IMG/VR virus record: IMGVR_UViG_3300045988_177228
Location: 1-64,000 of that record
Source of the DNA: a virus
Length of the DNA: 64,000 nucleotides
Direction: 5' to 3' (one strand)
The translations under genes and the position numbers were made by a program. Under the pieces are notes generated by a model. The model had not been told where the DNA came from and did no database searches. It saw only the letters and a program-made list of their open reading frames with translations. Positions 2,186 to 56,137 of the stretch are shown piece by piece (position 1 is the first letter of the stretch; each line of letters starts with the position of its first letter).

Positions 2186-2224
2186 AGAAGTAGAAGGAAG
2201 TAGTAATACGGCAGTCTTCCAATT
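2186..2224 (-). repeat. 39-bp conserved element R39, copy A (reverse orientation)
   Basis: Reverse complement aattggaagactgccgtattactacttccttctacttct matches 28802-28840 and 56102-56137 at about 36 of 39 positions. Confidence 0.7.
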
Positions 2225-2234
2225 TTAGCGTGGG

Positions 2235-2531
2235 TCAGAGGATTCGGGTTCCCTTGCGGGTGACGAGCATGATTCGGTTTTCGTGGCGGTTCTCGAAAAC
2301 GTCCCAGTTGCCGCTCAGGACAGCCAAGCACGCGTTGCCTTTGATGAGGTTCCAACGTTCGTCGCAGTTGGATACGACGTGCTTCCAGTTGGTTGGGTTG
2401 GGCTTGTGGTGGGAGGTTTCCACGATGGCTTCGGTCATGGGCTTGTCGGCGTAGGCGTGGTCGTAGGTGTTGTCGCTTGCGACGATGCTGATGGTGCCGT
2501 TGTCGAATGCGATTGGCTGGATGGTGTTCAT
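2235..2531 (-). CDS. hypothetical protein (98 aa)
   Basis: ATG at 2531 with aaaggagaaaac RBS. Degenerate M1-box at 2580-2602. Confidence 0.55.
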   Translation of the reverse strand: MNTIQPIAFDNGTISIVASDNTYDHAYADKPMTEAIVETSHHKPNPTNWKHVVSNCDERWNLIKGNACLAVLSGNWDVFENRHENRIMLVTRKGTRIL

Positions 2532-2579
2532 GTTTTCTCCTTTTGTTGTTGTGGGGACGAACCCTTTTTGTGTGGACAT

Positions 2580-2602
2580 GACCACTATAACACATGGTCT
2601 GA
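2580..2602 (-). promoter_or_regulatory. degenerate M1-box (tgtgtggacatgaccactataac)
   Basis: 17 of 23 match to consensus, same position relative to gene start. Confidence 0.3.
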
Positions 2603-2701
2603 AATATCACAATACGAAAAACAAAAAATGCCGACCAGCGCCTAGAAGCGGAAGACCAAGCCGCAAAAGCTAAACCCGTCGAATCCAACGGGTTTGGAAT
2701 C

Positions 2702-3025
2702 TCAGGAAATCAGTTGCCAAATCAGCCAGCCGACCAACCCCCACAGTACGAGCACCCCAATCGCATACATCCACGTGCCCGCGTATCCGCCCGCGAGGAA
2801 CGCGCTCATCCGACGTTTCCGTTGCTCCAGCAGTGCGTACCATTCGCTCTCGCAACGGTCGAACATGTCCGCGTCCATGCGGGTGCCGCCGTACATGTCG
2901 AGCCAATCGCGCACGGTCGGCATGGGACCCAACGGGTCACGCAGACGGGCGTGCGGTATGAGGGCTATTTTCAACCCCTGCCACATGCCCTTGAGGAAGA
3001 ACGCGGGTAGCCTGTCCCCGGTCAT
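2702..3025 (-). CDS. hypothetical protein with C-terminal transmembrane helix (108 aa)
   Basis: ATG at 3025 overlaps the stop of the upstream small gene (ATGA). Hydrophobic C-terminus IGVLVLWGLVGWLIWQLIS. Confidence 0.5.
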   Translation of the reverse strand: MTGDRLPAFFLKGMWQGLKIALIPHARLRDPLGPMPTVRDWLDMYGGTRMDADMFDRCESEWYALLEQRKRRMSAFLAGGYAGTWMYAIGVLVLWGLVGWLIWQLIS

Positions 3026-3190
3026 GACAGCTCCCCGCATGGTTCGACGGTTTGCCTCAGCCCCCGTTCGACCAGTGCTCTCACCGCCGCGTTCCACGTG
3101 AGTTCGTTATCGTCGGCGTATTGCATGGTCTGCCGGTACAGGTCGGCGGGCATCTGTATTACTCGGCTTACGTTTGGCGTCTTCAGCATT
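3024..3190 (-). CDS. small ribbon-helix-helix-like protein (55 aa)
   Basis: Not in ORF track (<60 aa). ATG at 3190 with taggagacaacc RBS. Product MLKTPNVSRVIQMPADLYRQTMQYADDNELTWNAAVRALVERGL resembles CopG/RHH antitoxin-type DNA binders. Confidence 0.45.
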
Positions 3191-3202
3191 GTAGGTTGTC
3201 TC

Positions 3203-3379
3203 CTATCGGAATATGCGGGCGAGCGAGTCCGCGTCTATATATCGGCGGTGCATGACCTTGTAGGTGCGGATTCGTCCTGCCTTGATGAGGTCGTACACGT
3301 GCTGGCGGGAGCAGTGCAGGTACACCATGGTGTCCGCGATGGTGAGGATGGTGGGCAGTTCCTTGTTATTGGCGCTCAT
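3203..3379 (-). CDS. excisionase-family / MerR-like HTH DNA-binding protein (58 aa)
   Basis: MSANNKELPTILTIADTMVYLHCSRQHVYDLIKAGRIRTYKV is a typical HTH_17/Xis-type helix-turn-helix. Start overlaps stop of 3376..3684. Confidence 0.6.
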   Translation of the reverse strand: MSANNKELPTILTIADTMVYLHCSRQHVYDLIKAGRIRTYKVMHRRYIDADSLARIFR

Positions 3380-3684
3380 GACCTGACCCCCAGTGCCGTG
3401 GCGACGGCCATGTGCAGGCGGTCGGCGTCCAGCTTGTCCAAGGTCTGCGGGGCGAGTGTGGCGGGCATGGTGTTGGCCGCGTCCGGTGTGTTGTAGATGC
3501 CGCCGGTCCACAGGTGGCGTCCGTCGGGGAGGGGTTTTTCCTTGGCGGTGTAGAACCATACGCCTTCGCCCAGTGTGAAGGTGATGTTGACGCCGTTGTG
3601 GTCGGGGGTGGGTTCGGCGTCCTTTATGCGGGGGTCGTCGGTGAGCTGGTCGAAGAGTCGTTCGTAGATGGTTTTGCGAATCAT
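3376..3684 (-). CDS. hypothetical protein (102 aa)
   Basis: ATG at 3684 with aaaggagaaaagc RBS downstream of M1-box 3717-3739. Confidence 0.6.
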   Translation of the reverse strand: MIRKTIYERLFDQLTDDPRIKDAEPTPDHNGVNITFTLGEGVWFYTAKEKPLPDGRHLWTGGIYNTPDAANTMPATLAPQTLDKLDADRLHMAVATALGVRS

Positions 3685-3716
3685 GGTGCTTTTCTCCTTT
3701 GTTGCGTCAACTCTTT

Positions 3717-3739
3717 ATGTGAACAATTCCAATATAGCA
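3717..3739 (-). promoter_or_regulatory. M1-box copy (tatgtgaacaattccaatatagc)
   Basis: Motif recurrence. Confidence 0.65.
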
Positions 3740-3816
3740 CGTTTGGATAAACATACAAAACAAGACACGTCCACACAAAAAGCCCCGCCAAAACGACGGG
3801 GCCACAATCCTGAAAA

Positions 3817-4017
3817 CTAACGATTCATACTCAATCGAACTTCAACCGCGACGGTCAGCAACACCACCGTAATGGCGCACACGGATACGATACCGAACGT
3901 GCGGCCAAACGTGAACAGCCAAGTGCCGAACGAGTAGATGCCGAACGCGACTGCGGTTGCCACCCCACCGAAAGCGATGGTGACAAGCGTCATAAGCAGA
4001 ACATCCTTGATATGCAT
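3817..4017 (-). CDS. small membrane protein (66 aa, two TM helices)
   Basis: ATG 4017 with aaaggagaaaa RBS after M1-box 4057-4078. Hydrophobic throughout. Confidence 0.5.
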   Translation of the reverse strand: MHIKDVLLMTLVTIAFGGVATAVAFGIYSFGTWLFTFGRTFGIVSVCAITVVLLTVAVEVRLSMNR

Positions 4018-4056
4018 TTTTTCTCCTTTTGGTGATGGGTTTTACGAACCCTTGTT

Positions 4057-4078
4057 TGTGTGAACAATTCCAGTATAC
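4057..4078 (-). promoter_or_regulatory. M1-box copy
   Basis: tgtgtgaacaattccagtatac. Confidence 0.7.
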
Positions 4079-4150
4079 ATCATGTTGGGTACGACACGCC
4101 AAACAAAAAGCGCCCCACCCATCCAAGGGAGAGGCGCTAAAACCCGACGG

Positions 4151-4528
4151 TCAGAACTCATACTCGCAATCGGAATCGAGATACCATTTGTCGCCGTAAC
4201 CCCAAAGAACACGACGGATGGTCGCAGGGTCGTTCAGCTCAACGAACTTGGACGCCAGTTCATCCACCGACTTGGCGGAAAAAGCCTTGCCGACGGAAGC
4301 GTAGAATTCATCCCATTCCGCCTGTTCGGCGTCGGAATCGACCAGCTCACGGAACCGTCCGGCAAGCTTCTCGTCCGGTAGTGTCGCTTCCGCAAAATTC
4401 GTGTCCTCTATATCCGACCAAGCGCCGAAACACTTGTCGGCCAACGATTCAACCGGAATGGTGAGGATGCTGGAATACGTGCCCTTCCAAGCGTTCTTCT
4501 TGAAGAAGCTAACGTCTCGTGCCTTCAT
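4151..4528 (-). CDS. acidic hypothetical protein (125 aa)
   Basis: ATG 4528 with aggagg RBS. Strongly acidic (D/E-rich). Confidence 0.55.
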   Translation of the reverse strand: MKARDVSFFKKNAWKGTYSSILTIPVESLADKCFGAWSDIEDTNFAEATLPDEKLAGRFRELVDSDAEQAEWDEFYASVGKAFSAKSVDELASKFVELNDPATIRRVLWGYGDKWYLDSDCEYEF

Positions 4529-4541
4529 TTTCCCGTTCCTC

Positions 4542-5036
4542 CTATTCTTCCTCGCCATCCGCCTGACGGAGTGGAACGATACGGTTCCACTGTTCCGTGT
4601 ATTCATTCTCCACATCCTTGGAACCATTGTCCAGCAGTTCGTTCAAAGTGGCTCGTCCTACGTCGCTGAGACGGCTGATGCTGCGGAGAATGCTCGCCAC
4701 GTCGTCGGCTTCGTATAGTTTATTGCGATTGTCCGACAGTTCCTGATACTTCGAGTCGGTGAGGTTCCAAACATAGTCTTCCAGCAGTTTCCAGTCCTCC
4801 TTTTCGGCAGAGGGTACTGGAATCGGCTTGGTGAGCCGCCAATCTTCGAGAATGTCCGCCCAAAGGTCGGTCTTGACATTGTATTCGCCAAGGTCTTCCT
4901 CGTGGGTGAGTTTTTCGATTCGCTGTTCTTCGCCATCCTCGTCCAAGTAGTCTATTGTGAGATATTCCCTATCCACTGACAAGGTGGAGAGTTCGCGTAG
5001 TTTGGTGATTTTGAGGTTGACGATTGTGTTAATCAT
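4542..5036 (-). CDS. very acidic hypothetical protein (164 aa), candidate DNA-mimic/anti-restriction-type protein
   Basis: ATG 5036 with caaggagg RBS after M1-box 5068-5090. About 30% D/E. The ArdA-like idea rests on size and charge only, no motif match. Confidence 0.55.
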   Translation of the reverse strand: MINTIVNLKITKLRELSTLSVDREYLTIDYLDEDGEEQRIEKLTHEEDLGEYNVKTDLWADILEDWRLTKPIPVPSAEKEDWKLLEDYVWNLTDSKYQELSDNRNKLYEADDVASILRSISRLSDVGRATLNELLDNGSKDVENEYTEQWNRIVPLRQADGEEE

Positions 5037-5067
5037 TTTTTGTTCCTCCTTGTTGGAATCTATTTTT

Positions 5068-5090
5068 TGTGTGAACAATCCCAGTATACC
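5068..5090 (-). promoter_or_regulatory. M1-box copy
   Basis: tgtgtgaacaatcccagtatacc. Confidence 0.7.
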
Positions 5091-5150
5091 ATGTTTGTTG
5101 TGAAAAACAAAAACAGCCCACTCCCCAAAGCAAGGAAGCGGGCTGAAAAG

Positions 5151-5975
5151 TCAGGCATTCAGCAAAGCGTGGGACGAAACACCCATTTCAGACAAACCCA
5201 AACCCACATTGTTCGCGTCACTCACACCACGGGCAAAACCATCCTTGCTACCACGAGCAGTGGCCGCATGACCCGACACCAGCTCAAGCTTGTCAAAATA
5301 CTCGTTCAGACGCTGACTCTTACATGACACCAGCTCACGACCGGAAGGAATGGCGAGACTCTGCTTGCGAAGCTCCTCGAAACGTTCGCTCAAACGTTCG
5401 TTGAATCCACCGCGATAACCATAGTAGAACTTGGCGCGTGGATAATCACGACGCATGTACTGTTTGCATTCCGTCAGCGTCGGATAGGATTCATGTCTGT
5501 AATGCGTTTCGACGTATTCCTTGTTGTTCTCATAGTACGCTTTGGCGTGCTGGTCAATCATGTCCGCGTAGCTGGTGCGGGCGTGGATTGAGCAGTATAG
5601 GTCGATGCTTTGGAAGAGAATGACTGCGGCGTTCACATCGTCCTCCTCGCCTACGAACATGACGGCACGTTCCTCAATCCTTCCGCCACACCGGCTTTCG
5701 TGAAGGTAGGTGCGGCATTCGTTAGCTTGGGCGATGATGGTCGCAAGGTAGCCTTGCTGATGGTAGATGGTGGTTTTGCTTACGTTCACGCCACGTTCGA
5801 TGATTGGCTTGTTCGTGCGGGTGCGGTCGCGTTTCCAGTCTTCGATACGATATTCGTTAATGAGTTTCTGTGCCCGCTCGAACGCCATTTGCGCCTCATT
5901 GTCGCTGGAAGCTTCGTTTTCGGCTATTGCCATGAGGTTGTTGATGCGTTCGATGATGCTGTCGATGTTGCTCAT
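5151..5975 (-). CDS. DUF2786-like protein (274 aa)
   Basis: ATG 5975 with caaggagc RBS after M1-box 6006-6027. N-terminus IIERINNLMAIAENEASSDNEAQMAFERAQKLINEYRI matches the DUF2786 signature (..KLLALAEST.NE.EA.AA..KAQELM.KY.I) seen in phage and plasmid proteins. Confidence 0.55.
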   Translation of the reverse strand: MSNIDSIIERINNLMAIAENEASSDNEAQMAFERAQKLINEYRIEDWKRDRTRTNKPIIERGVNVSKTTIYHQQGYLATIIAQANECRTYLHESRCGGRIEERAVMFVGEEDDVNAAVILFQSIDLYCSIHARTSYADMIDQHAKAYYENNKEYVETHYRHESYPTLTECKQYMRRDYPRAKFYYGYRGGFNERLSERFEELRKQSLAIPSGRELVSCKSQRLNEYFDKLELVSGHAATARGSKDGFARGVSDANNVGLGLSEMGVSSHALLNA

Positions 5976-6005
5976 TTTTTGCTCCTTGGTTTTCTTTTAT
6001 CTCTT

Positions 6006-6027
6006 TGTGTGAACAATCCCAGTATAC
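6006..6027 (-). promoter_or_regulatory. M1-box copy
   Basis: tgtgtgaacaatcccagtatac. Confidence 0.7.
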
Positions 6028-6128
6028 AGCGTGTGAAAAAAACGACACACCCAAAAACTATAAACAACCTCTGAAAAAACAAACCCCTCCAACCTATAAG
6101 GGAAGGAAGAGAACTGTTACAGAATCGC

Positions 6129-6443
6129 TCAGGCGTCCAAGTGGGAATGACGCAGAAGCCTACGAACATTGATATTGTGGACAAACCTATCCTGACCGAC
6201 AATCCTCGAAGCAAACTCCCTATCGGTATATCCACCGTCGGAAACACCGTCCAAAACAGTCTCGGGAATATTGTCTAACATGTAATAGCTGACGCCGGTC
6301 TGACCCTCGACATGCTCGAAAAGCATGTAGTAGACGCCCTCGGGGTCGTCGATGAAACGGCTCATGACATACGACTTGTTGCCATTGGCGAAGATGTTGT
6401 AGTCCTCTGCGCCGAACTGCTTGAAGTATGCGGGCTTATTCAT
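6129..6443 (-). CDS. hypothetical protein (104 aa), paralog of 328..636
   Basis: ATG 6443 with caaggagaaaaaa RBS after M1-box 6473-6494. Paralogous to the 328..636 product. Confidence 0.65.
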   Translation of the reverse strand: MNKPAYFKQFGAEDYNIFANGNKSYVMSRFIDDPEGVYYMLFEHVEGQTGVSYYMLDNIPETVLDGVSDGGYTDREFASRIVGQDRFVHNINVRRLLRHSHLDA

Positions 6444-6472
6444 TTTTTTCTCCTTGGTTTTTCAACTTTTTT

Positions 6473-6494
6473 TATGTGAACGATTCCAGTATAC
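6473..6494 (-). promoter_or_regulatory. M1-box copy
   Basis: tatgtgaacgattccagtatac. Confidence 0.7.
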
Positions 6495-6729
6495 TCCAAG
6501 CGTGGAAACAATACAAAAAAAGAGGAACGGAAACCGAAACGGGAACCGTCCCTCAATGCCTTTTAGAAAGTGACCTATTATCTCAAACAAGATTATCTTG
6601 ATTACTTCTGTTTAGGCTGTCAACCTCTACTTTCGACAAATCCCACCCATTATCGAACTCAGCCCTTTAGTACATGCTTTTTTAAAGTATTATACTTATT
6701 ATAATTATTATAAAATCAAGGAAACAGAC

Positions 6730-7992: not shown

Positions 7993-7994
7993 TG

Positions 7995-9854: not shown

Positions 9855-11009
9855 TCACGGGTGAAAAGCCAGCTTCCGCATTTCACAATGCCTCCGATAC
9901 CACGCTTTCTCCCGAGCGCACAGTCCACGACGGTGAGTTAGACCCGACAGTGTGCTCTCATGGCTCGTCCAAGAATCCTGAACTGTCCGCAATCCCACAT
10001 GCACGCCATCATATGAGCGGATAAGGTTACGCGCATGCCGTCGGCTTGCACGCAACGCCTTATGGTGCATGCGGATAAGAATACTGCCGTCATCCTGTAC
10101 ACTGTATACGCGTTTCAGGAATGTGAGTTGACCGGTATGACAGTCCACTATGCGGGTCTTATGCTTGTTCAACCGCAATCCCAATTGATTGACACGCCAC
10201 TCATAACCGGCCAGCACACGTTCAGCCTGTTCACGATTCTTGCAGAAACAGTAGGCATCGTCCATGTACCGTCCGTAGAATCCTTGCGACATGCACCAGT
10301 GGTCAACCTTGTTCAAATACCAGATAGCCATGGTTTGGCTCGTCTGATTACCTAACCCTAAGTGAGGTTCGTCCAATACGAAGATTCTCAATACGGTTAG
10401 AATCCGTTCCACATCCTGCTTCTCCCGTCCGGTGCGGGCGATGCTCCGGTACAGGGTGGAAATCATATCGAACGCGCGTTGGGAGCTGATACTGCCGAAA
10501 TAGTTGGAACAGTCGAATATGACAGCATACGGATGCTCCCATTTACCCAAAGCCCGCTTATAGTGTAGTTCAAACCGTTTTCGGGCGAACGATGTTCCAC
10601 GTTTCGGAAGGCTCGCCGCATTATCATATATCAGTTGGCTTTCCACGATGGGGACGAGACTGTTGTCGCATAAGGCGCGTTGCACCACCCGGTCTCGGAA
10701 GGATACCGCGCTGATGTGGCGGAGTTTGCCTCGTTCGGAAATGTCGAATCGGATTGGCGCTCTCTTCTTGTATGTGCCGTCCTCTAATTCTTGTGCGAGT
10801 TTCCAACAGTTGACGGCACGCCTATTGTCGAAGTTCAACGCTGTGTTTTTCCACGTGACGCCGCGTTTGCATTTTCTTGCGGCTTGGTAGAGCGCGTCGA
10901 ATCCGAATGTTTGTTGGAAGTCGATGTAACGGTGGAGCTTCCTGTACTTATCATCCGAGCGTTGTTGCAGTCTGCGTTGGCGTCTTCTACGTCTTTGACT
11001 CGCATTCAC
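9855..11009 (-). CDS. diversity-generating retroelement reverse transcriptase
   Basis: RT motifs including YMDD. DGR-specific LGLGNQTSQ in place of QGxxxSP. Likely GTG start at 11009 with gaaggaag RBS (longest ORF reaches 11084). Immediately 3' of TR. Confidence 0.85.
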   Translation of the reverse strand: MNASQRRRRRQRRLQQRSDDKYRKLHRYIDFQQTFGFDALYQAARKCKRGVTWKNTALNFDNRRAVNCWKLAQELEDGTYKKRAPIRFDISERGKLRHISAVSFRDRVVQRALCDNSLVPIVESQLIYDNAASLPKRGTSFARKRFELHYKRALGKWEHPYAVIFDCSNYFGSISSQRAFDMISTLYRSIARTGREKQDVERILTVLRIFVLDEPHLGLGNQTSQTMAIWYLNKVDHWCMSQGFYGRYMDDAYCFCKNREQAERVLAGYEWRVNQLGLRLNKHKTRIVDCHTGQLTFLKRVYSVQDDGSILIRMHHKALRASRRHARNLIRSYDGVHVGLRTVQDSWTSHESTLSGLTHRRGLCAREKAWYRRHCEMRKLAFHP

Positions 11010-11278
11010 GATTTTAATGCTTCCTTCACTAGGGAAAGAGAAAAGAATGGTTGAGGGCAGGTCGTCGGCAACAACCCAAGACATGCAATGATGTTGGACG
11101 CCCAGCTTAAGGGGCGAGTATCCGTCGTTTCCGACAGTCTTAATATCTCCCTCAACCTATTTCACACGCAACCCATTTTTCGAGGGGCCGCGCATTCGAC
11201 CATATCCCCTTCCCCTTCGGGAGGCTTTCACCCATTGGGCTACTGGCCTATCTGATGTTAGTTTTTGGTAAGAGGAAT

Positions 11279-11430
11279 CGGGGACAACGGAGTAGCGATT
11301 GTTAGCATTGTTGTTGTAGCTGGGGTCACCGTTCGAGTTCACTTGGAGGAAATTGCCGCTGTTGTTCGGGTTGGGCGAACGCTCCCACCAATTGTTGTTG
11401 TTGGCACCGGAGGGTGCTGAACCGGAAACG
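11279..11430 (-). repeat. DGR template repeat (TR)
   Basis: 152 bp, identical to 12069-12220 except 14 positions, all T on the plus strand (A on the coding minus strand). Coding strand rich in AAC/AAT codons. Confidence 0.85.
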
Positions 11431-11465
11431 GAAACACCATTTTGGATATGGCCGGTTTTGTTTAG

Positions 11466-11987
11466 TTATATTTGGGGTTGAACCCAAGTGTCCATTCTAG
11501 TGGTGGTCTTTGACTCGACGGTTTTGGCTTTCTTCAACTGGTCTCGCTCGTATCGGACTGCCCCCGTGAACACCCCCATGGCTTTGTAGAGTGTGCCCGC
11601 ATAGTTGACAAATTTCTTCTCCTTGATTACGGGATTGTAGGTGGGGTCGCCTTCCTGACTGTTCTGGTAGGCTTTCATGTCGCGTTCTCGTGGTGGATAG
11701 TCTATCCAGTCGTCTACGAGGCCGGAGAGTGCGTTCAGCATTCCTTGGGCCTTGCATAAGAGTTGCAGTTTCATCTTATGCTCTTCGAGGGTGCTCGCGT
11801 AGATGGTGTCGGCGCTGTAGGCGGCTGTGTACATGTCGTAGGCGATGTGCATGACGTGTATGGTTTCGATGTTGTCTCGGCTTTTGGGCCATTTCCGGAA
11901 GAGGTTTCTGGTGGCGTAGAGTACGATTCTCGCTTGGTTCGCATATTCGCTTTTTGCTTTTGTCCGCTTGCTGGCGGGTACTGTCAT
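11466..11987 (-). CDS. putative Avd-like accessory variability determinant (173 aa, basic, helical)
   Basis: Position between target VR and TR as in canonical target-avd-TR-RT cassettes. Lys-rich helical protein. No direct motif proof. Confidence 0.45.
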   Translation of the reverse strand: MTVPASKRTKAKSEYANQARIVLYATRNLFRKWPKSRDNIETIHVMHIAYDMYTAAYSADTIYASTLEEHKMKLQLLCKAQGMLNALSGLVDDWIDYPPRERDMKAYQNSQEGDPTYNPVIKEKKFVNYAGTLYKAMGVFTGAVRYERDQLKKAKTVESKTTTRMDTWVQPQI

Positions 11988-12053
11988 AGGGGCTTCTTTC
12001 GTGTGATGTTTTAGCGGGGGTGGGGATGAACCCCACCCCCTAAAGATGGGGGA

Positions 12054-13019
12054 TTAGAAGGAGAAAGCGGGGACAACGGAGTAGCGATAGTTAGCATAGT
12101 AGCCGTAGCTGGGGTCACCGTTCGAGTACACTTGGAGGAAACTGCCGCTGTTGTCCGGGTCGGGCGAACGCTCCCACCAACGGTTGCTGCCGGCACCGGA
12201 GGGTGCTGAACCGGAAACGGTTTCGTAGATTCCAGACAGAATATTATTGTTTGAATAGTTGTGCATCACCTTGCCTTGGAAATACTCGTATTGGCTTCCC
12301 TCCTGACTTAACGCTTGGAATCCATTAGAGCTTTTCCACCCGTCGTATATGGTTGGTACGAGTTCCCTGTAGGATACGAGCCATACCTTGTCTGCTGTGG
12401 CGGATGCGGCGGAGCCGGAAGTGTTTCCGTAGTCCATGTTGTTGGTTTGTTTCAATACGGTGGTCACGTTGTTTTGGAAGTCGGTGGGGAATTGGTTCCA
12501 GATTTCCCCATTGTTCATCCATTGACGGAGATTACTGTCGCGCCATCCGCCCTTGTTGGTGTAGCCGTTCGTGCAGGTGGTCGTGTTGTCGGTTGGCATG
12601 ACGCCGTTTATGCAGTACGCTTTCGGTAACGCGTTCCATGCCATGAACGTCAAGCCAGCCTTTTTGCCGCTACCATCAGCCTTGTCGTCGTGGAGGATGC
12701 CGATGAGCCGGAATGGAAGATTGGAACCGTCCGACAGTGTGAGCGAGCCTTGCGTGCCCTTAGTCAGATTATCCTCCATTTCCGCATAGTAAGCGCTTCC
12801 CTTGCCCTTGTCGCTCAAATCGTCGGCAATCTGCTTCAATCCTGCGGCGTTGTAGCCCGCATAGCAGACCTTGTCCACGCCGGTCGAACATTTGGCCGGT
12901 TCCGAAGCGATGGCGCTACCGGTGATGAGTCCGCCGCAGACCGCCGCCACGATGGCGAGGGTGGCGAGGATTCGTTGTCCCAAGTGGCGGTTCACACGGT
13001 TACTGGCGTGCATGCCCAT
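12054..13019 (-). CDS. DGR variable target protein, secreted/surface (signal peptide, C-terminal VR)
   Basis: ATG 13019 with aaaggaac RBS (GTG at 13034 overlaps adhesin stop). Hydrophobic N-terminal signal LATLAIVAAVCGG. C-terminal 50 aa encoded by VR ...QVYSNGDPSYGYYANYRYSVVPAFSF. Confidence 0.8.
   Translation of the reverse strand: MGMHASNRVNRHLGQRILATLAIVAAVCGGLITGSAIASEPAKCSTGVDKVCYAGYNAAGLKQIADDLSDKGKGSAYYAEMEDNLTKGTQGSLTLSDGSNLPFRLIGILHDDKADGSGKKAGLTFMAWNALPKAYCINGVMPTDNTTTCTNGYTNKGGWRDSNLRQWMNNGEIWNQFPTDFQNNVTTVLKQTNNMDYGNTSGSAASATADKVWLVSYRELVPTIYDGWKSSNGFQALSQEGSQYEYFQGKVMHNYSNNNILSGIYETVSGSAPSGAGSNRWWERSPDPDNSGSFLQVYSNGDPSYGYYANYRYSVVPAFSF
12069..12220 (-). other. DGR variable repeat (VR) at 3' end of target gene
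   Basis: Aligned to TR it shows 14 substitutions, T to A, C or G on the plus strand, all at TR adenines of the coding strand. Flanks diverge at both ends (IMH-like 3' boundary at 12051-12068). Confidence 0.85.
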
Positions 13020-13030
13020 TTTTGTTCCTT

Positions 13031-19326: not shown

Positions 19327-19443
19327 GCGGTTATAAAGAATCTAAAAGGTGGCGTGTCGATATTTGGGTTCCCGACACGCCAAGCGGAACATTTCATGCT
19401 TTTCCAGCCGTCAAACGGTCAGAAAAGTTTTCTCATACGACTC

Positions 19444-28229: not shown

Positions 28230-28567
28230 GCAGCAACGGATTCGGCAAGGAAGACATAAGCAGAACAGCCATTCCGGCACGCCCATACGCCAAGGATATG
28301 GCCGTCATCAACCGGCTGTTGTCACGGTTGCAAACCATTTCGAACGATAAGGCCAAAGGGAAAATCACATTCCAACAGGCGAACAAGAAGGCTGTGGAAG
28401 CAATCCACAAGGCTCGGAACACCAAGTCGAAGTCCCTGCAACGCAAGCCATTAGATTATTTAGAACATATCTGCAAGAACGGTTGGATTCGGGAAGCTGT
28501 GCGAAAGATTCCCGAACTGTACCCGTATCTCGACCATCCAGATTTGTGGCTTCGTAAAGGCGCCTGA
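28226..28567 (+). CDS. hypothetical protein, NGWIREA-motif family member 2 (tandem paralog)
   Basis: TTG start overlapping previous stop. Paralogous over full length. Confidence 0.55.
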   Translation: MSSNGFGKEDISRTAIPARPYAKDMAVINRLLSRLQTISNDKAKGKITFQQANKKAVEAIHKARNTKSKSLQRKPLDYLEHICKNGWIREAVRKIPELYPYLDHPDLWLRKGA

Positions 28568-28797
28568 TGTATTCCAAAGAGCAGATATGTTGCATGGTTT
28601 CTCTCATAATATTGTCGGCGTTGAGCTTGACCGCGCTGGTGCATTACGCTCGACTGTCGATAGGAAGAATGAGTCGGATGCCTGACGAGAAATCCCGTTC
28701 AGACCTGTTCAACTATCGGCTGATGACCGTCGTGTCACTGCTGGTGTTGTCGGTTTCGGTGGGTTCCATCATCGTCTACGGTTCCTCTCTCAAATAG
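28567..28797 (+). CDS. small membrane protein (76 aa)
   Basis: ATG overlapping previous stop. Two TM helices. Confidence 0.45.
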   Translation: MYSKEQICCMVSLIILSALSLTALVHYARLSIGRMSRMPDEKSRSDLFNYRLMTVVSLLVLSVSVGSIIVYGSSLK

Positions 28798-28801
28798 ATT
28801 G

Positions 28802-28840
28802 GATTGGAAGACTGCCGTATTTATACTTCCTTCTACTTCT
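28802..28840 (+). repeat. R39 element copy B
   Basis: gattggaagactgccgtatttatacttccttctacttct, 55 nt upstream of AAA ATPase start. Confidence 0.7.
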
Positions 28841-28894
28841 CAAACATTGACCATAACGTTACAAAAATCATTTTCAGAAAGCAGGAAGGTCAGT

Positions 28895-46323: not shown

Positions 46324-46476
46324 GTGACCATAGCTCCTTTATGGTTGCCAACGCCCCGGCTGTTGACCCAGCGCGGGGTTTTCTTTTTCTTCGATTCTAA
46401 CCGGTGCTTCTGACCTTCCCGCTGTTGTATTCAACCTTTCGGGCGTGCGTGAGAAAGTGACACACAGAACATGAAA

Positions 46477-46565
46477 AAGTTGGCACTTTCGACACGGAAA
46501 GTTGGCACTTTCGACACGGAAAGTTGGCACTTTCGACACGGAAAGTTGGCACTTTCGACACGCTT
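46477..46565. repeat. iterons: 4 tandem copies of a 22-bp direct repeat (aaagttggcactttcgacacgg)
   Basis: Perfect head-to-tail repeats at 46477, 46499, 46521 and 46543, plus partial ctttcgac. Confidence 0.85.
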
Positions 46566-46991: not shown

Positions 46992-48272
46992 GTGTTCGGA
47001 AGCAAGAAAGACAAGAACGGCAAACAGCCGATGGGTCAGCAGAAGGCGAAGCAGAACCCGAACAATGAGACCGACCTGTTCGCTGACGAAAAAGAACGCA
47101 AGGACGAGATAGAACTCACCGCGTGGAAGAAGGCGTTGAAGAACACCCAGAAGTGGAAGGTTCTCATCATCCTGTTCATCTGCACCGGTCTGGTCGCTCC
47201 GATGGTTTCCGTCCGCGCAATCAACACGTTGAACGAAATGGGTTCCTACCTGACGGAGAAGTACAAGGAAATCAGCGGCGACAAGCCCGGCAAGCAGGTC
47301 GCATTGCAAGCCGTGTACAGTTGGCTGGATGATGACAAGGGCGCTTTCCAATACGGGTATGCGAACCTGTGGTGGAATGGTGCCACCGAGGTCAGCACAT
47401 CCACTTCGGACGATTCCAACGGTTCTATCACCCAGTATTGGAGCCATCAGATGTCCCTCACCGATAAGTCGGATGGAAGCACGAGGGATATCACCCAGCT
47501 TGTCGCCGTCACCGACGGAGTGGCTACTGCGGTGGGGACGCCGACCGTGCTTCCAAAGACCGTCACTTCGAACAGCAATACGGACACGTACCGTCCCGAC
47601 GATTACATTCAGCTTGACCAGAACACGAGCCTGACGAACGTGGTCAGCGCTTGGTCTAAAGCGTACATCGGCAAAGACTCCAACGCTTTGACGGTTCTTG
47701 TCGGAGACCCGAACAGCGACCACATGTATCAACCCGCAAGCTTGGGTTCTTATCTGAACTCGTCCCTCGACTGGCTTGTGCAATGCACCAAGGACGGCAA
47801 GACCGTTGACAAGCAGAACAAGTCCGACAATCCCGAATGGGCGGCGGCGAGCGTCAGCATCTCGTTCAAACCCTACGAGAAGAAGGTTGATGCAAGCACG
47901 GCCAACGACCCGAACGCGGACACTGGTTCAACGAGCGACGTGGAGACGAGCGTCACCGTCCTCATCCATAATCCGACCCGTGGTAGCGCGAAAATCGTTG
48001 ACTGGGGCGCCGAAGGCAGTCTGACCACGTTGAAGGCGTTCAGCAATGCCATTGACCGTTCGCTGATTGGCTCTTCCAACAGTGATGACGATGATGATTC
48101 TTCCGATTCCAGTTCATCGGATTCCGATAGCGGTTCCGGTGATGACGGTTCCGACAATGACGATTCCGACTCCTCCGATTCGGATTCGTCAGACAACAAC
48201 AGCAGTAGTTCATCCCAGAATTCCGATGACGGTTCCGTAACCGGCGACCCCAATGAGGGTCCGAACGACTAA
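46992..48272 (+). CDS. membrane-anchored protein with Asp/Ser-rich acidic C-terminal tail (426 aa)
   Basis: N-terminal TM VLIILFICTGLVAPMVSV, extracytoplasmic body, C-terminal DDDDDSSDSSSSDSDSG low complexity. Confidence 0.65.
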   Translation: MFGSKKDKNGKQPMGQQKAKQNPNNETDLFADEKERKDEIELTAWKKALKNTQKWKVLIILFICTGLVAPMVSVRAINTLNEMGSYLTEKYKEISGDKPGKQVALQAVYSWLDDDKGAFQYGYANLWWNGATEVSTSTSDDSNGSITQYWSHQMSLTDKSDGSTRDITQLVAVTDGVATAVGTPTVLPKTVTSNSNTDTYRPDDYIQLDQNTSLTNVVSAWSKAYIGKDSNALTVLVGDPNSDHMYQPASLGSYLNSSLDWLVQCTKDGKTVDKQNKSDNPEWAAASVSISFKPYEKKVDASTANDPNADTGSTSDVETSVTVLIHNPTRGSAKIVDWGAEGSLTTLKAFSNAIDRSLIGSSNSDDDDDSSDSSSSDSDSGSGDDGSDNDDSDSSDSDSSDNNSSSSSQNSDDGSVTGDPNEGPND

Positions 48273-51751: not shown

Positions 51752-51795
51752 GAAAGAATTTTTCCTACAACCTTCCTTGTTTGCGAAAAACTACG

Positions 51796-51819
51796 TTATA
51801 GTGGAACCAGTCACAAACA
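51796..51819 (+). promoter_or_regulatory. M1-box copy (ttatagtggaaccagtcacaaaca)
   Basis: Upstream of TTG 51835. Confidence 0.55.
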
Positions 51820-51834
51820 AGGAAGGTTTCTTTT

Positions 51835-52167: not shown

Positions 52168-52192
52168 ATCCTTGGAATATCAGAACAACACC

Positions 52193-53235: not shown

Positions 53236-53273
53236 TTTTAGAAAAAAACACAAAACCTCTGAAAGGAGCAGCA

Positions 53274-53717: not shown

Positions 53718-54670
53718 AGCCTTGGTTCCAAGACGACACGCTGACGCTCTATCTGGGCGACGCATCGTCCGTGCTTCCCGATTTGCCCGACGGAAGCGTC
53801 GATTGCATCGTCACCAGTCCGCCGTACTACGGGTTGCGTCAATACACGGATTCCGAACTGGAAATCGGACGCGAACCCACACCCGGCGGCTATGTGGAAG
53901 ACCTCAGCAAAGTATTCCGCGAATGCAGACGAATCCTAGCCGATGACGGCACGCTCTGGCTGAACTTGGGTGACACGTACTCCACGCCGAACCTGTGGGA
54001 CGGCGGCGACGAGTCGGAGACCAGCATCGGATTGCACGGACATGCGCAGAAACCGAACGGCAGAAAACGTCCAGACCGTCCGGCGAAGAACCTGCTCGGC
54101 ATCCCGTGGAGAGTGGCGTTCGCATTGCAGGATGACGGTTGGATATTGCGCTCGGATATCATTTGGGGAAAAACCAATCCCATGCCGGAAAGCGTGAAAG
54201 ACCGTCCAAGCAAAAGCTACGAGCATATTTTTCTATTCTCCAAAACCGAAAAATACTATTACGACTACCAGTCCGTAAGACAACGGCAGTCGGAGAAAAC
54301 CATTGAGGATTTAGCTCACCGGCATACGCTCGGCAACAAAAGCGCATATGGTGGCGTCCGCGAGGATTTGGGAAGAGACCGTAGGGAATACGTGGCATCG
54401 GACGGCAGACGAAACCTACGCGACGTGTGGATGTTGCCGACCCGCCCGTATGCGGGAGCGCATTTTGCGGCTTTTCCGTTGGATATTCCCCTCACATGCA
54501 TTCAGGCCGGTTGCAAGCCGGGCGGCGTGACGCTCGACCCGTTCAACGGTTCCGGTACCACCGGGTTGGCGGCTGCGATGCTGGGGTGTAGGTATGTCGG
54601 TGTTGATTTAAACGAACAATATTTGGAATTGAGTCTGCGAGACCGTCTGAATCAGCCTGCGTTCGTATAG
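53714..54670 (+). CDS. DNA methyltransferase, beta-class amino-MTase (N4-C or N6-A)
   Basis: Motif IV VTSPPYYGL before motif I LDPFNGSGTT. TTG overlapping previous stop. No adjacent restriction endonuclease recognised. Confidence 0.85.
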   Translation: MKPWFQDDTLTLYLGDASSVLPDLPDGSVDCIVTSPPYYGLRQYTDSELEIGREPTPGGYVEDLSKVFRECRRILADDGTLWLNLGDTYSTPNLWDGGDESETSIGLHGHAQKPNGRKRPDRPAKNLLGIPWRVAFALQDDGWILRSDIIWGKTNPMPESVKDRPSKSYEHIFLFSKTEKYYYDYQSVRQRQSEKTIEDLAHRHTLGNKSAYGGVREDLGRDRREYVASDGRRNLRDVWMLPTRPYAGAHFAAFPLDIPLTCIQAGCKPGGVTLDPFNGSGTTGLAAAMLGCRYVGVDLNEQYLELSLRDRLNQPAFV

Positions 54671-54684
54671 GAGATTGGAAAAAA

Positions 54685-54888
54685 ATGCTGTCGTTATTAT
54701 CACAACAGAATGTGCTTATCGCATTGGCTGTGGGAGCTATCATATTGGCGCTCATGTTCCTTGTGTCCGCATTGGAAGACTTGTTGGGTAGTGATACGAG
54801 ACTAGGGGAGTTGTGCGGTCGCAGGAACCTGAGATGGGCTGTGGTCATTCTGACCATCGTGGCGGTTCTCACGGTAGTGGTCATCTGA
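54685..54888 (+). CDS. small membrane protein (67 aa)
   Basis: gagattggaaaaaaATG. Two TM helices. Confidence 0.45.
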   Translation: MLSLLSQQNVLIALAVGAIILALMFLVSALEDLLGSDTRLGELCGRRNLRWAVVILTIVAVLTVVVI

Positions 54889-54896
54889 CTTTTCTG

Positions 54897-54926
54897 ACTG
54901 GGGCGGCGTCGAGTCGCCCCTTTTTT
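54897..54926 (+). terminator. rho-independent terminator
   Basis: GGGGCGgcgtcgagtCGCCCC followed by TTTTTTATTTT. Confidence 0.75.
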
Positions 54927-54975
54927 ATTTTCGGAATCGTGGATTTGAGTTTTCAGGCAATCACTTAACCTATGC

Positions 54976-54997
54976 TATATTGGAATCGTTCACATAA
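54976..54997 (+). promoter_or_regulatory. M1-box copy (ctatattggaatcgttcacata)
   Basis: 20 nt upstream of ATG 55017. Confidence 0.65.
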
Positions 54998-55016
54998 GCA
55001 GACGTAAAGGAAAACC

Positions 55017-55274
55017 ATGAACCAAAAAGTCCTCATCGCTCTCAACAACGGAGCGAAACGTATCGTATACCGTGACGACCTCTGCCACGAGCTGGCCGAC
55101 CTGCTCCGGCTCTACCTGCACGCCGACGCGTTGCCGGGAACAGGGGAACGTTGGGAACTGTTGAGGACGCTTGCATCCACTCTCATTGGTCGCGCTGTCG
55201 AAAAAGGGCTTTTTGAGGACTGCGCCCGCGTGAACGTGTATCCGGTTTCTTTTCAAATGGTTCAGCCTGATTGA
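55017..55274 (+). CDS. hypothetical protein (85 aa)
   Basis: aaaggaaaaccATG. Confidence 0.55.
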   Translation: MNQKVLIALNNGAKRIVYRDDLCHELADLLRLYLHADALPGTGERWELLRTLASTLIGRAVEKGLFEDCARVNVYPVSFQMVQPD

Positions 55275-55293
55275 CGTATTCAACAAACTGAGT

Positions 55294-55317
55294 TACAGTG
55301 GAACTGTTCACACATAT
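55294..55317 (+). promoter_or_regulatory. M1-box copy (ttacagtggaactgttcacacata)
   Basis: 22 nt upstream of ATG 55339. Confidence 0.65.
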
Positions 55318-55338
55318 AGACCCAAAGGAGAAAACCAA

Positions 55339-55602
55339 ATGACCGTCAACGAACTCATAGAACAATTGAAGAACCTACCCAAGGAAGTATGCGAACAACC
55401 CATCATGAACGGCAAGCCGAACGTAGGCTACCGGCTAGCCGGTCTTCACGCAATTTCAGCCGCCAAGGTCATTGTATCCGACGACGGCGTTTGCAACGTG
55501 TACGACCCGGAGCTTTCCGACGAGGAAAACGTAACAGAGTTGGAAAACCGATATGGCATGCCAATGCATGTCGAGCATCGAGTGCTGGCGTTCTTCGATT
55601 GA
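55339..55602 (+). CDS. hypothetical protein, MTVNELIEQLKNLP family member 1 (87 aa)
   Basis: aaaggagaaaaccaaATG. N-terminus paralogous to the 57386 and 57610 products. Confidence 0.6.
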   Translation: MTVNELIEQLKNLPKEVCEQPIMNGKPNVGYRLAGLHAISAAKVIVSDDGVCNVYDPELSDEENVTELENRYGMPMHVEHRVLAFFD

Positions 55603-55612
55603 GAAAGGTTCT

Positions 55613-56074
55613 ATGAAAATGGACGCGCACACTCCTATCAATATTCCCATCCGTCTCGAACAGTGGCTCAAAGGCGACAACGTTTTAGATGTCGAAACAA
55701 TCATCATCGACGCCCGGCCAATCCTAGACGCAACCGATTTCGACAATCTTCCCGAATGGGAGGATTGGGATGCGGACTTCATCGCGGAGGACGCTCAAAG
55801 AATCGGACTGCTGAAAATGTGGTCTGGGCCATTCACGGTCGAACTGTTTAATTGCGACGAGTATCCCGACTATCTCGAATGGCGTAAAACCCATAAGACC
55901 ATTGAGGGTGCCGCAGAACATATCCTCGACTTGAGCAAGAAGGAATTGCAACGGCGAATCGAAGAAACCAAGAAGCAACTCGACAAGTATGTTAGCCAAT
56001 ATGAGGCATTATGCGAGGAACAGTATCCGCGTCAAACTTCTGGAACGGAACTGGTTGGCAGACTACTCGTCTAA
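55613..56074 (+). CDS. hypothetical protein (153 aa)
   Basis: gagaaaggttctATG. Acidic. Confidence 0.55.
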   Translation: MKMDAHTPINIPIRLEQWLKGDNVLDVETIIIDARPILDATDFDNLPEWEDWDADFIAEDAQRIGLLKMWSGPFTVELFNCDEYPDYLEWRKTHKTIEGAAEHILDLSKKELQRRIEETKKQLDKYVSQYEALCEEQYPRQTSGTELVGRLLV

Positions 56075-56101
56075 CATCCGAAGGGAAAAAGGAAAGCCAA
56101 A

Positions 56102-56137
56102 GATTGGAAGACTGCCGTATTCATACTTGCTTCTACT
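56102..56137 (+). repeat. R39 element copy C
   Basis: gattggaagactgccgtattcatacttgcttctact. Confidence 0.7.

Follow-up and report, generated by a model that had tools for sequence, protein, structure and literature searches.

Solitary repeat units (SRUs) were reportedly first listed by Faure et al. in 2019. In Francisella, scaRNA and long-form tracrRNA are said to programme Cas9 for regulation, as described by Sampson in 2013, Ratner in 2019 and Workman in 2021, and the spacers of mobile elements reportedly hit close relatives, both in the virus mini-arrays of Medvedeva (in 2019) and in the plasmid-plasmid conflict of Pinilla-Redondo (in 2022). For class 1 and V-A systems, SRUs are known to act as RNA anti-CRISPRs (Racrs); type II-C SRUs have already been catalogued (Camara-Wilpert et al. 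2023, PMC10651486). Further, ecrRNAs have been argued to divert Cas9 (Feussner et al. 2025, PMC12080349), and the Cas9 of C. jejuni loads mRNA-derived crRNAs, with the upstream mRNA serving as guide (Jiao et al. 2021, PMC8224270).

In the whole 64,000-nucleotide stretch analyzed here (the window), the sequence ATTGGAAGACTGCCGTATTNNTACTTNCTTCTACT was present at 2189-2223 (-), 28803-28837 (+) and 56103-56137 (+); with the preceding base counted, this element, R39, comprises 36 nt (Table 1). The earlier note had taken the three near-identical copies for a real element, and this was borne out, as no R39 match occurred in 100 dinucleotide-preserving shuffles and the copies are therefore not due to chance. 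A search of the 64-kb window returned no others at up to three mismatches. Each copy follows a co-oriented gene, with the stop codon of ORF 2235-2585 (-) located 10 nt before copy A, that of ORF 28567-28797 (+) 4 nt before copy B and that of ORF 55553-56074 (+) 27 nt before copy C. A position 50-120 nt upstream of a gene had been claimed for every copy; this holds for copy B (57 nt from the AAA ATPase start at 28895) and copy C (115 nt from the next start codon), but not for copy A, whose next start codon is 146 nt away. The M1-box promoter in between, a motif published for pMP7017 (PMC10832533), lies outside R39, and its position ahead of the HEAT-repeat gene (1122-2042, -) shows copy A to be the end of the preceding unit and not the head of the HEAT gene.

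Copies A and B have 11 nt more in common (46 nt, 89%). Alignment of the 100-nt flanks of the window copies showed no homology beyond R39, so the copies are not the ends of a duplicated segment, which was one refutation that the earlier note had proposed. Ends of a mobile segment were discarded likewise, the flanks being unrelated and the only recurrent feature being a partial duplication of the repeat start (5-8 nt) at the 5' junction. At copy C, a gene fragment directly abuts the repeat, which identifies R39 there as a rearrangement junction. The 10 ORFs flanking SRUs gave no Pfam or PHROG match and no match to an anti-CRISPR family.

Table 1. Coordinates of R39 copies and associated features in the window.
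Feature	Position	Strand	Remarks
R39 copy A	2189-2224	-	Solitary type II-C CRISPR repeat of the AC variant, with A in place of G as first base
R39 copy B	28802-28837	+	Solitary repeat, TA variant
R39 copy C	56102-56137	+	Solitary repeat, CA / TTG variant
A/B extension TCTCnnAnATT	2178-2188	-	Counterpart at copy B: 28838-28848
Truncated, diverged gene copy (83%)	56138-56202	+	Codons ~14-35 of gene 56512-56880; abuts copy C
M1-box promoter motif	2067-2097	-	Between copy A and HEAT-repeat gene
Empty site	53725-53752	+	28/28 identical to sequence directly before solitary R39 in L050/L058/L070
Empty site	59776-59803	+	27/28 identical to sequence before solitary R39 in L003 and 8 other loci
Empty site	19442-19463	-	Directly followed by a partial R39 in L025 (22-nt stretch)
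Protospacer	47128-47155	-	28/28 match to spacer of L011 R39 mini-array

Comparison with related elements revealed that R39 is the 36-nt repeat of a type II-C CRISPR-Cas9 system of this plasmid family. The R39-bearing elements are extrachromosomal, Bifidobacterium-associated and distantly related to the megaplasmid pMP7017. The 18-mer core of R39 was found at 75 loci in viral contigs and at more than 116 in metagenomes, these last being from the human gut wherever labelled; since most loci were retrieved by an exact 18-mer (R39 positions 3-20), the conservation of that part is partly due to ascertainment. At least eight related human-gut elements of ~100-220 kb carry a Cas9 locus with an R39 array, in the order tracrRNA-cas9-cas1-cas2-array and with 28-nt spacers. 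At several loci, the arrays comprise 6-33 copies at a 64-bp period, separated by unique 28-nt spacers (n = 129 unique spacers), and when these arrays were tested as CRISPR, the spacers proved to be unique, and targets of spacers were found. The adjoining cas9 (Pfam Cas9_a, 4e-76; TIGR01865), cas1 (cas1_NMENI, 1e-66) and cas2 (PF09827) form a locus without csn2 or cas4. Between cas2 and the start of the array there are ~40-370 nt, varying with the locus (L089, L018), and no further gene. The first repeat of the array, at its cas-distal end, carries mutations and has a hairpin and T-tract ahead of it, as described for the 'extra repeat' of II-C arrays (PMC12080349).

Neither cas9, cas1, cas2, a tracrRNA nor an array was found in the window, and no second repeat, spacer or nearby partial copy was found beside its R39 copies, which are therefore SRUs: full, intergenic repeats with no neighbouring repeat within 100-200 bp and no cas gene nearby. 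The earlier note's suggestions of a small RNA or a recombination site had both pointed in roughly the right direction; the key fact, not visible to its author, is that in relatives R39 forms CRISPR arrays adjacent to cas9.

Directly upstream of cas9, eight loci harbor a conserved RNA gene, the tracrRNA, whose fold differs from that of shuffles (z = -4.7). This gene starts from a TATACT promoter, includes a hairpin resembling a nexus and ends in a terminator. The calculated duplex with this tracrRNA amounted to -22 to -26 kcal/mol for R39 in the forward direction vs. -12 for its reverse complement, and to -19.6 to -21.5 kcal/mol for copy A. In the L089 lineage, a variant repeat (GTTTGAATATATGTCGT...) is accompanied by compensatory tracrRNA changes (A-U to U-A; C-G to U-A), which are shared by L087, whose array is absent from the data. 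The conserved tracrRNA and these compensatory changes establish that R39 as written is in the crRNA sense, i.e., the crRNA strand is that on which it reads GATTGGAAGACUGCCGU..., and the neighbouring genes run in this direction too. SRUs and array repeats vary at the same positions (21, 22 and 32), of which 21-22 are unpaired in the predicted duplex.

Across the family, at least 18 distinct intergenic sites carry an SRU, in every case behind a gene of the same orientation. The SRUs number 3-6 per genome, and they are as frequent in Cas9-bearing as in Cas9-less genomes. The earlier note's view of R39 as an element distinct from the M1-box and co-oriented with genes was upheld, and R39 proved to be conserved in related elements. 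At least five sites, all incidental finds, carry truncated copies that retain the 5' tracrRNA-pairing part, and the 3' part by itself was found at none. pMP7017 lacks Cas9, a type I-E system being its only one, yet carries an exact copy of the first 23 nt of R39, intergenic and co-oriented, in surroundings that are not alignable. At the site of copy B, R39 was present in all relatives with an AAA identity of at least 91% and absent from those at 69-81%; the sequence variant of copy C recurs in L068 in a different context. That identity between the copies implies selection was an overstatement, since they may share a recent array source and R39 at site B diverges at about the rate of its flanks.

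Many SRUs coincide with deletion or replacement junctions that truncate genes or a tRNA. In the relatives corresponding to the first empty site of Table 1, the gene downstream of R39 is replaced, and in those corresponding to the second, R39 stands in place of window positions 59806-60224 (~420 bp, 1.8 small ORFs). In L025, a 23-nt partial R39 (ATTGGAAGATTGGAATACTGCCG) replaces the 5 nt AGTCG directly after the third on the minus strand, with both flanks kept. One class of SRUs in relatives is followed by an intrinsic terminator 12 nt on, and another is preceded by an M1-box promoter.

Judging from sequence matches, some spacers of the Cas9 systems on sister plasmids are directed against this plasmid family. 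Protospacers numbered four: a contig of a gut phage supplied one and relatives the other three, including the one in the window. The protospacer in the window lies inside ORF 46992-48272, which follows 22-bp iterons.

Since the window carries lone copies of the repeat of a Cas9 system that sister plasmids direct against this plasmid family, these copies are most likely guide-RNA look-alikes in a conflict between plasmids rather than operators. Our leading reading, held with slightly less than even confidence, is that SRU transcripts pair with the tracrRNA of rival plasmids, thereby serving as decoy (extraneous) crRNAs. To judge from the gene layout, read-through from the preceding gene would generate transcripts with the repeat in the crRNA sense. 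Where a sister plasmid with Cas9 shares the cell, its tracrRNA would pair with the repeat over the first ~17-24 nt in a predicted duplex of an 8-bp lower stem, a small internal loop and a 6-bp upper stem. RNase III would then cut this duplex and Cas9 would load a guide-less, self-matching 'extraneous' crRNA, so that tracrRNA and Cas9 would be diverted from genuine crRNAs, some of which probably target this plasmid family; in Cas9-bearing members, SRUs may damp or tune their own system. In line with such decoys, SRUs follow co-oriented genes at all of these sites, neither a terminator nor a promoter was called around the window copies, including the interval between each copy and the preceding stop codon, truncated copies keep the tracrRNA-pairing 5' part, as does pMP7017, and array spacers match relatives, the window included (28/28). 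Against them, the window copies, in contrast to characterised Racrs, have no promoter or terminator of their own; further, a decoy in a Cas9-bearing genome would weaken that element's own system, and the location of SRUs at deletion and replacement junctions points to a DNA-level origin, so that they could be by-products. We know of no type II RNA anti-CRISPR that has been demonstrated; if this reading is true, SRUs would represent the counterpart of RNA anti-CRISPRs in type II systems, acting through the tracrRNA.

That SRUs are nothing but DNA-level by-products, i.e., scars or remnants of CRISPR-array events that serve as neutral marks and hot spots of module exchange, is unlikely, albeit worth serious consideration. 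Mini-arrays may collapse through repeat-repeat recombination, dispersed repeats may recombine, or a targeted plasmid that Cas9 has cut may be repaired with the attacker's array as template, in which case spacer-protospacer pairing would be followed by synthesis into the adjacent repeat and by end joining that removes the PAM side. Such copying from spacer into repeat would give the precise 5' edge and variably truncated 3' end that R39 displays, and several independent deletions end exactly at its 5' edge (L045 vs. L059; L036 vs. L066). The rearrangements fit as well: R39 replaces 420 bp of ORFs intact in the window and part of a tRNA-Arg intact in L068, truncates the L066 homologue of a pMP7017 gene and, as copy C, adjoins a truncated gene copy. 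Mini-arrays are found at SRU-type sites (L002, L011), L059 has two R39 copies 11 nt apart, and the repeat diverges like its flanks at site B. However, a pure repair scar predicts random orientation, and all examined SRU sites were co-oriented with the upstream gene; none of the 129 unique spacers matched SRU-flanking sequence, and the 23-nt copy in pMP7017 is exact, yet its surroundings are not alignable. A scar origin is also compatible with a later function.

It is rather improbable that SRUs are orphan guide genes, in which an SRU crRNA would have the final 20-28 nt of the preceding gene as its spacer and be employed in allele targeting or homing. Cas9 and tracrRNA from the same or a sister plasmid would cut rivals in which that gene end is not followed by the repeat. 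An allele with the SRU would be immune because the repeat replaces the PAM, and repair from that allele would spread the SRU. This would account for the linkage between SRUs and indels, and it agrees with the location of SRUs, in the crRNA sense, directly 3' of transcribed genes, with the existence, in other family members, of perfect or near-perfect 'empty' counterparts of SRU 5' flanks, such as the first two in Table 1, and with the presence of SRUs in Cas9-bearing genomes; in one of these, L012, the SRU flank is identical (28/28) to the intact tRNA-Arg of Cas9-bearing relatives. Nevertheless, no PAM motif was shared by the four protospacer flanks, too few to define a PAM, and nine empty-site flanks, more distant relatives lack a matching empty allele at site B, and both the making and the Cas9 loading of SRU RNAs are putative.

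In repeat-embedded promoters of the N. meningitidis / C. jejuni type, a conserved (extended) -10 box is located close to the repeat's 3' end. Type II-C repeats with their own embedded promoters have been reported (PMC12080349), and a solitary repeat might likewise drive the gene downstream, which we regard as less probable still. The arrays here seem insulated from upstream transcription, an RBS and start codon occur within 24-60 nt after many SRUs, and the TA variant includes TATACT, the -10 hexamer of M1-box promoters. The TATACT-like core mentioned in the earlier note is, however, the most variable part of R39 (ACTACT, GCTACT, CATACT, TATATT, ACTAAT), with most variants lacking A2 or T6, and neither a TG extension nor a -35 element at 16-18 nt is present. 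One SRU class has the intrinsic terminator 12 nt downstream, a separate M1-box promoter lies downstream of copy A, and truncated copies keep the 5' part and lose the AT-rich part. A II-C-type promoter at the R39 3' end was rejected specifically, as this end reads CTTCTACT, the sole -10-like hexamer is central and polymorphic, and the sigma-70 scan was negative.

Finally, a CRISPR-unrelated protein operator, an attenuator, a structured small RNA or the ends of a mobile or duplicated segment, as the earlier note had partly favoured from intergenic, conserved and co-oriented copies, is very improbable, given that R39 has no dyad symmetry, folds no better than shuffles (z of -0.13, 0.03 and 0.55 in sense and -0.8 to 1.4 in antisense), shows no T-tract terminator, sigma-70 promoter, Rfam match or flanking homology, and forms Cas9-associated arrays at a 64-bp period with the identical sequence, which an independent operator would not.

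Under the decoy-crRNA reading, R39 SRUs resemble Racrs in being lone intergenic repeats on a mobile element, far from cas genes, that match a system the element meets. They differ in that type II requires pairing with tracrRNA, whereas the Racrs tested so far imitate repeats to which Cas6, Cas5 or Cas12a binds directly; in that they are embedded after genes, 3-6 per genome at the sites described, and are not stand-alone small RNA genes; in that the cognate Cas9 system resides on sister plasmids, at times in the same genome, and not on the host chromosome; and in that many mark deletion junctions. As with ecrRNAs, a repeat after non-spacer sequence would, upon upstream transcription, give a target-less crRNA-like RNA that engages tracrRNA and Cas9, and R39 arrays show the counter-measures described, namely the mutated first repeat and upstream hairpin/T-tract; the window repeats, by contrast, lie outside arrays, uninsulated and with the tracrRNA-pairing part intact, which is the opposite of array silencing. 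The non-canonical crRNAs of C. jejuni derive from parts of mRNAs that base-pair with the anti-repeat of the tracrRNA and, once processed, enter a II-C Cas9, but these rely on fortuitous partial matches, in contrast to a full repeat at conserved positions here. scaRNA and long-form tracrRNA are also repeat-like or tracr-derived RNAs outside the array, acting in regulation rather than immunity; they come from single dedicated loci beside cas9 and have partial target matches, none of which was found for R39 SRUs. Lastly, L002, L011 and L013 carry arrays or mini-arrays aimed at relatives, as mobile-element mini-arrays do, whereas the window R39 copies stand without any spacer.

It is nearly certain that R39, the 36-39-bp element present three times in the window, is a solitary type II-C CRISPR repeat lying in the crRNA sense, a reading well supported by its occurrence in relatives. 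When IMG/VR was scanned for exact matches to the 18-mer core TTGGAAGACTGCCGTATT, 75 loci on 39 contigs of 13-217 kb were obtained, and several loci carried 6-33 copies of the motif at a 64-bp period. L012 (L-numbers denote the retrieved relatives, from a family of ~100-220 kb human-gut elements) contained a textbook CRISPR array, with the 36-nt repeat GATTGGAAGACTGCCGTATT[AC/TA]TACTTCCTT[C/T]TACT and unique 28-nt spacers. Adjoining the arrays are genes for a Cas9 of 1,108 aa (Cas9_a at 4e-76, RuvC_III, HNH and TIGR01865), a Cas1 of the NMENI/type II kind (1e-66) and a Cas2 (PF09827), with no other gene between cas2 and the array; this layout is that of type II-C. Neither cas9, cas1, a tracrRNA nor an array was found in the window, which makes its three R39 copies solitary repeat units (SRUs), i.e. 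lone repeats with neither spacer nor second repeat. An origin from the host chromosome was rejected, as the 18-mer had no more than 8 matches, all by chance and lacking the rest of the repeat, in representative genomes of bacteria and archaea; the nearest chromosomal Cas9, from Bifidobacterium, is 48% identical.

All three copies were found where the earlier note had placed them, and they were the sole matches at ≤3 mismatches in the window, with none in 100 shuffles. The unit is 36 nt long once the base preceding ATTGG is counted, and copies A and B have 11 extra bases in common (repeat pair I1). Alignment of 100-nt flanks confined the similarity to the element, so that the copies are not the ends of a longer duplication. 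A co-oriented gene ends 4-27 nt upstream of each copy, and the co-orientation with genes described previously holds throughout; the distance of 50-120 nt to the next gene was right for copies B and C (start codons at 57 and 115 nt, plus strand) and too short for copy A (146 nt, minus strand). A separate M1-box, a promoter motif named in the earlier note, lies between R39 and the HEAT-repeat gene. On folding of both strands no copy was better than shuffled sequence, Rfam gave no match in the window, and a scan for sigma-70 promoters and intrinsic terminators around the three copies called none, which effectively excludes an attenuator or structured RNA. The proposed second operator class is likewise effectively excluded, because the identical sequence forms cas9-adjacent arrays in relatives, and so is a mobile-element end. 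No near-identical records were present in the phage and plasmid collections. Site B is kept in all relatives whose AAA ATPase is ≥91% identical and is missing in those at 69-81% identity, where the two genes abut.

Comparison with related elements, which had been proposed as a check, revealed conservation: besides the arrays, R39 recurs at no fewer than 18 distinct SRU sites among the fetched loci, with 3-6 per genome, in Cas9-bearing and Cas9-less contigs alike. At every site checked a co-oriented gene precedes the SRU, including one site where local AT skew hinted otherwise. Repeat positions 21, 22 and 32 are polymorphic in SRUs and array repeats and the remainder is largely constant, although constancy at positions 3-20 is partly built in, since most loci were retrieved by exact match to them. 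Partial copies met incidentally in flanks comprised only the 5′ 16-25 nt at a minimum of five sites and only the 3′ part at none. The Bifidobacterium breve megaplasmid pMP7017 has type I-E as its sole CRISPR system, and no related Cas9 was found in it; it carries the exact first 23 nt of R39 as an unannotated intergenic copy, co-oriented and 34 nt after a stop codon, within otherwise unalignable intergenic DNA. Ten ORFs flanking the SRUs, considered as anti-CRISPR candidates, gave no Pfam or PHROG match.

The strand of the crRNA was deduced from a conserved RNA gene, which occupies the region directly upstream of cas9 in each of the eight loci where this was available. It has an M1-type TATACT promoter, a nexus-like hairpin (AAGUCCGGUGACAGACCGG), a strong terminator and a fold with z = -4.7 relative to shuffles. 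The 3′ anti-repeat of this tracrRNA, ACGGCAAGUUUCAAUC, pairs with GAUUGGAAGACUGCCGU, i.e. R39 as the earlier note wrote it, in a predicted duplex whose lower (8 bp) and upper (6 bp) stems flank a small internal loop, at a predicted -22 to -26 kcal/mol compared with -12 when the reverse complement is used. It follows that array and cas9 are transcribed in opposite directions and, since SRUs are co-oriented with genes, those of the window lie in the crRNA sense. The order of the cas genes and the degeneracy of the distal repeat had suggested a crRNA corresponding to the reverse complement, but this tracrRNA overturned it; as tracrRNA, a degenerate copy that follows an M1-box in L003/L068 was discarded because it is not conserved across all cas9 loci. 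The tracrRNA of L089 and L087 is the variant ACGACAUAUAGUUUAAAC, predicted to pair at -22.8 kcal/mol with the variant repeat of the L089 array (GTTTGAATATATGTCGTATTACC...) versus only -13 with R39, which is compensatory change on both partners in this lineage. A short decaying array of L089 holds the sister-lineage repeat GTTTGAATATATGTCGTATTACCTTTTGCTCAAACT, which, together with the tracrRNA bearing matching changes, is a natural co-variation pair. The uniform, newest repeats adjoin cas2. At the cas-distal end, the first repeat carries mutations (TTTTTGGAAGATTGCC), and before it lie a hairpin and a T-tract, which a simple terminator scan did not call. The same configuration has been described for type II-C arrays, where the mutated first repeat and the upstream hairpin/T-tract match two published ways of silencing extraneous crRNAs (ecrRNAs) (PMC12080349).

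Many SRUs lie at rearrangement junctions. R39 takes the place of ~420 bp in nine loci, L003 among them; the corresponding window segment encodes one complete small ORF and the end of another, and in these loci an intrinsic terminator is called 12 nt after R39. In L059 the first R39 is preceded, 11 nt upstream, by a diverged second one, and in L045 a further 290-bp deletion ends at the R39 5′ edge. The Cas9-bearing L012 has R39 in place of ~230 bp including most of tRNA-Arg(CCU), which is intact in other relatives, and the sequence before this SRU matches their intact gene at 28/28 positions. In L066 a homologue of a pMP7017 gene is truncated by R39, in L025 a 23-nt partial R39 stands in place of 5 nt directly following the corresponding window stretch on the minus strand, and downstream of window copy C lies a truncated version (83% identical) of a nearby gene. 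These replacement, truncation and deletion junctions tie SRUs to gene loss and module exchange. The 5′ edge of SRUs is precise and the 3′ end variable, and at many 5′ junctions the start of the repeat is duplicated over 5-8 nt (e.g. ATTGG followed by ATTGGAAG, or ATTGGAAG followed by ATTGGAAT), which may be the signature of an insertion mechanism. The same duplication also precedes the first repeat of mini-arrays.

Spacers were examined by searching 129 unique sequences against ~2 Mb of family DNA and phage and plasmid collections. Three match family members, one at 28/28 within the window, inside the ORF following the iterons, and one further spacer matches a phage contig from the human gut; the four protospacers gave no PAM consensus on either side. 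Three-repeat mini-arrays outside cas loci were present in L002 and L011, one within a tRNA cluster and the other beside Cys-rich small genes. One mini-array spacer matches the 5′ UTR and gene start behind an M1-box promoter in relatives (19 nt only in the window), and the other has its match in the rep-like ORF of the window. This 426-aa ORF, without a family match, lies downstream of five tandem 22-bp iterons (AAAGTTGGCACTTTCGACACGG), and the two are probably initiator and replication origin.

The window DnaB is 50-54% identical to Bifidobacterium DnaB, with pMP7017 and 184-198 kb B. longum plasmids as best plasmid matches, and AAA-ATPase genes identical to those of the window occur on ~206 kb human-gut metagenome scaffolds. 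Relatives encode tmRNA, a tRNA cluster and RepA, and the M1-box corresponds to a 34-bp motif already reported for pMP7017 promoters, where it overlaps the -10 box (PMC10832533). The window therefore belongs to a large plasmid or phage-plasmid that is associated with Bifidobacterium and is a distant relative of pMP7017. About 17 M1-box copies (TGyTATACTGGAAnnGTTCACAnAAA), all gene-directed, are present in the window. As in pMP7017, 6-9 tRNA genes and tmRNA (tag AKTNSSRNFQLAA) lie between the CRISPR array and RepA in L012, L013, L018 and L068, with degenerate R39 copies scattered among the tRNA genes. The window also contains a complete diversity-generating retroelement (DGR), in which 16 of 19 template/variable mismatches fall at template adenines, and genes for RCC1-repeat and flotillin/SPFH proteins, unusual cargo beside dnaB.

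Coordinates of R39 copies, their junctions and other features in the window and its relatives
Feature	Sequence	Position	Strand	Remark
R39 copy A	window	2189-2223	-	
R39 copy B	window	28803-28837	+	
R39 copy C	window	56103-56137	+	
Partial R39	pMP7017 (L124, NZ_KM406416.1)	182185-182207		
Partial duplication, 5-8 nt	window	28797-28807		
Partial duplication, 5-8 nt	L068	8426-8436		
Partial duplication, 5-8 nt	L025	10891-10906		
Segment replaced by R39	window	59806-60224		L003 and eight other loci
R39 replacing tRNA-Arg(CCU)	L012	1604-1700		
Intact tRNA-Arg(CCU)	L068	7925-8000		
Gene with truncated copy after copy C	window	56512-56880		
Empty site	window	53725-53752		
Empty site	window	59776-59803		
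Empty site	window	19442-19463	-	matching stretch precedes partial R39 in L025
Sister-lineage repeat array	L089	14680-14980		
tracrRNA with compensatory changes	L087/L089	~9860-9890		
Mini-array	L002	80-250		
Mini-array	L011	13870-14035		
Spacer match, 28/28	window	47128-47155		
Spacer match, 19 nt	window	4015-4033		
Iterons	window	46454-46562		
426-aa ORF	window	46992-48272		
M1-box copies	window	190-6527	-	
M1-box copies	window	27157-60305	+	
DGR, complete	window	9855-13034	-	
DGR reverse transcriptase	window	9855-11084	-	RVT_1, phrog_1423
DGR template repeat	window	11265-11431	-	
DGR variable repeat	window	12054-12220	-	3′ end of ORF 12054-13034
RCC1-repeat protein	window	13031-18421	-	1,796 aa; SdrD-B/prealbumin-like domains
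Flotillin/SPFH protein	window	21318-22715	-	
dnaB	window	22767-24107		

Regarding function, we infer, and tentatively favour, a role of SRUs at the RNA level, although the chance that it is correct falls somewhat short of even. Read-through transcripts would carry an intact tracrRNA-pairing module and, in a Cas9-less plasmid targeted by armed relatives, the SRU RNA could serve as a decoy. Type II-C arrays suppress such ecrRNAs because they divert Cas9 (PMC12080349), mRNA-derived crRNAs are loaded by a II-C Cas9 (PMC8224270), and lone repeats are RNA anti-CRISPRs (Racrs) in other CRISPR types (PMC10651486). The main difficulty for a decoy is that Cas9-armed members have SRUs too. The junctions fit an origin at the DNA level, by recombination among repeats, collapse of mini-arrays or array-templated repair; however, the strict co-orientation of SRUs with genes speaks for RNA-level selection, and we consider it rather unlikely that such an origin is the whole story. 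None of the 129 spacers equals an SRU flank, which neither supports nor excludes array-templated repair.

It is improbable, with roughly half the chance given to a purely DNA-level origin, that SRUs are orphan guides in a natural Cas9 allele war, each making the last stretch of the gene before it a guide RNA that targets sister plasmids without a repeat there. The plasmid's own copy would be protected because the repeat replaces the PAM, and the three empty sites of the window (stretches matching sequence that precedes an SRU in relatives, with no repeat there) would be unprotected targets. SRUs might then arise or spread when Cas9 breaks are repaired with a partner that bears the repeat (an array or an SRU allele) as template, which would explain both their location at deletion junctions and their precise 5′ edge. 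Slightly less probable still is a repeat-internal promoter, whose sole -10-like hexamer is variable.

SRUs and Racrs are already known, and type II-C SRUs have been listed previously but not studied. New here are a multi-copy, sense-oriented, gene-embedded II-C SRU family, a cognate Cas9 on sister plasmids that target this family, the need for a tracrRNA-mediated mechanism, and the association of SRUs with deletion junctions. The large Bifidobacterium plasmids concerned, common in human gut metagenomes, are engaged in CRISPR-armed conflict, with CRISPR repeats linked to their gene loss and module exchange. Their Cas9, tracrRNA and repeat form a compact set that comes with natural "decoy" substrates and is suited to studying ecrRNA effects on Cas9 immunity. 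To our knowledge, RNA anti-CRISPR activity of solitary repeats has been demonstrated only where Cas proteins bind the repeat directly. If the RNA-level role holds, intact type II-C SRUs placed in sense orientation after genes would extend this idea to action through the tracrRNA, a weak point of Cas9 that is obvious yet still to be demonstrated.
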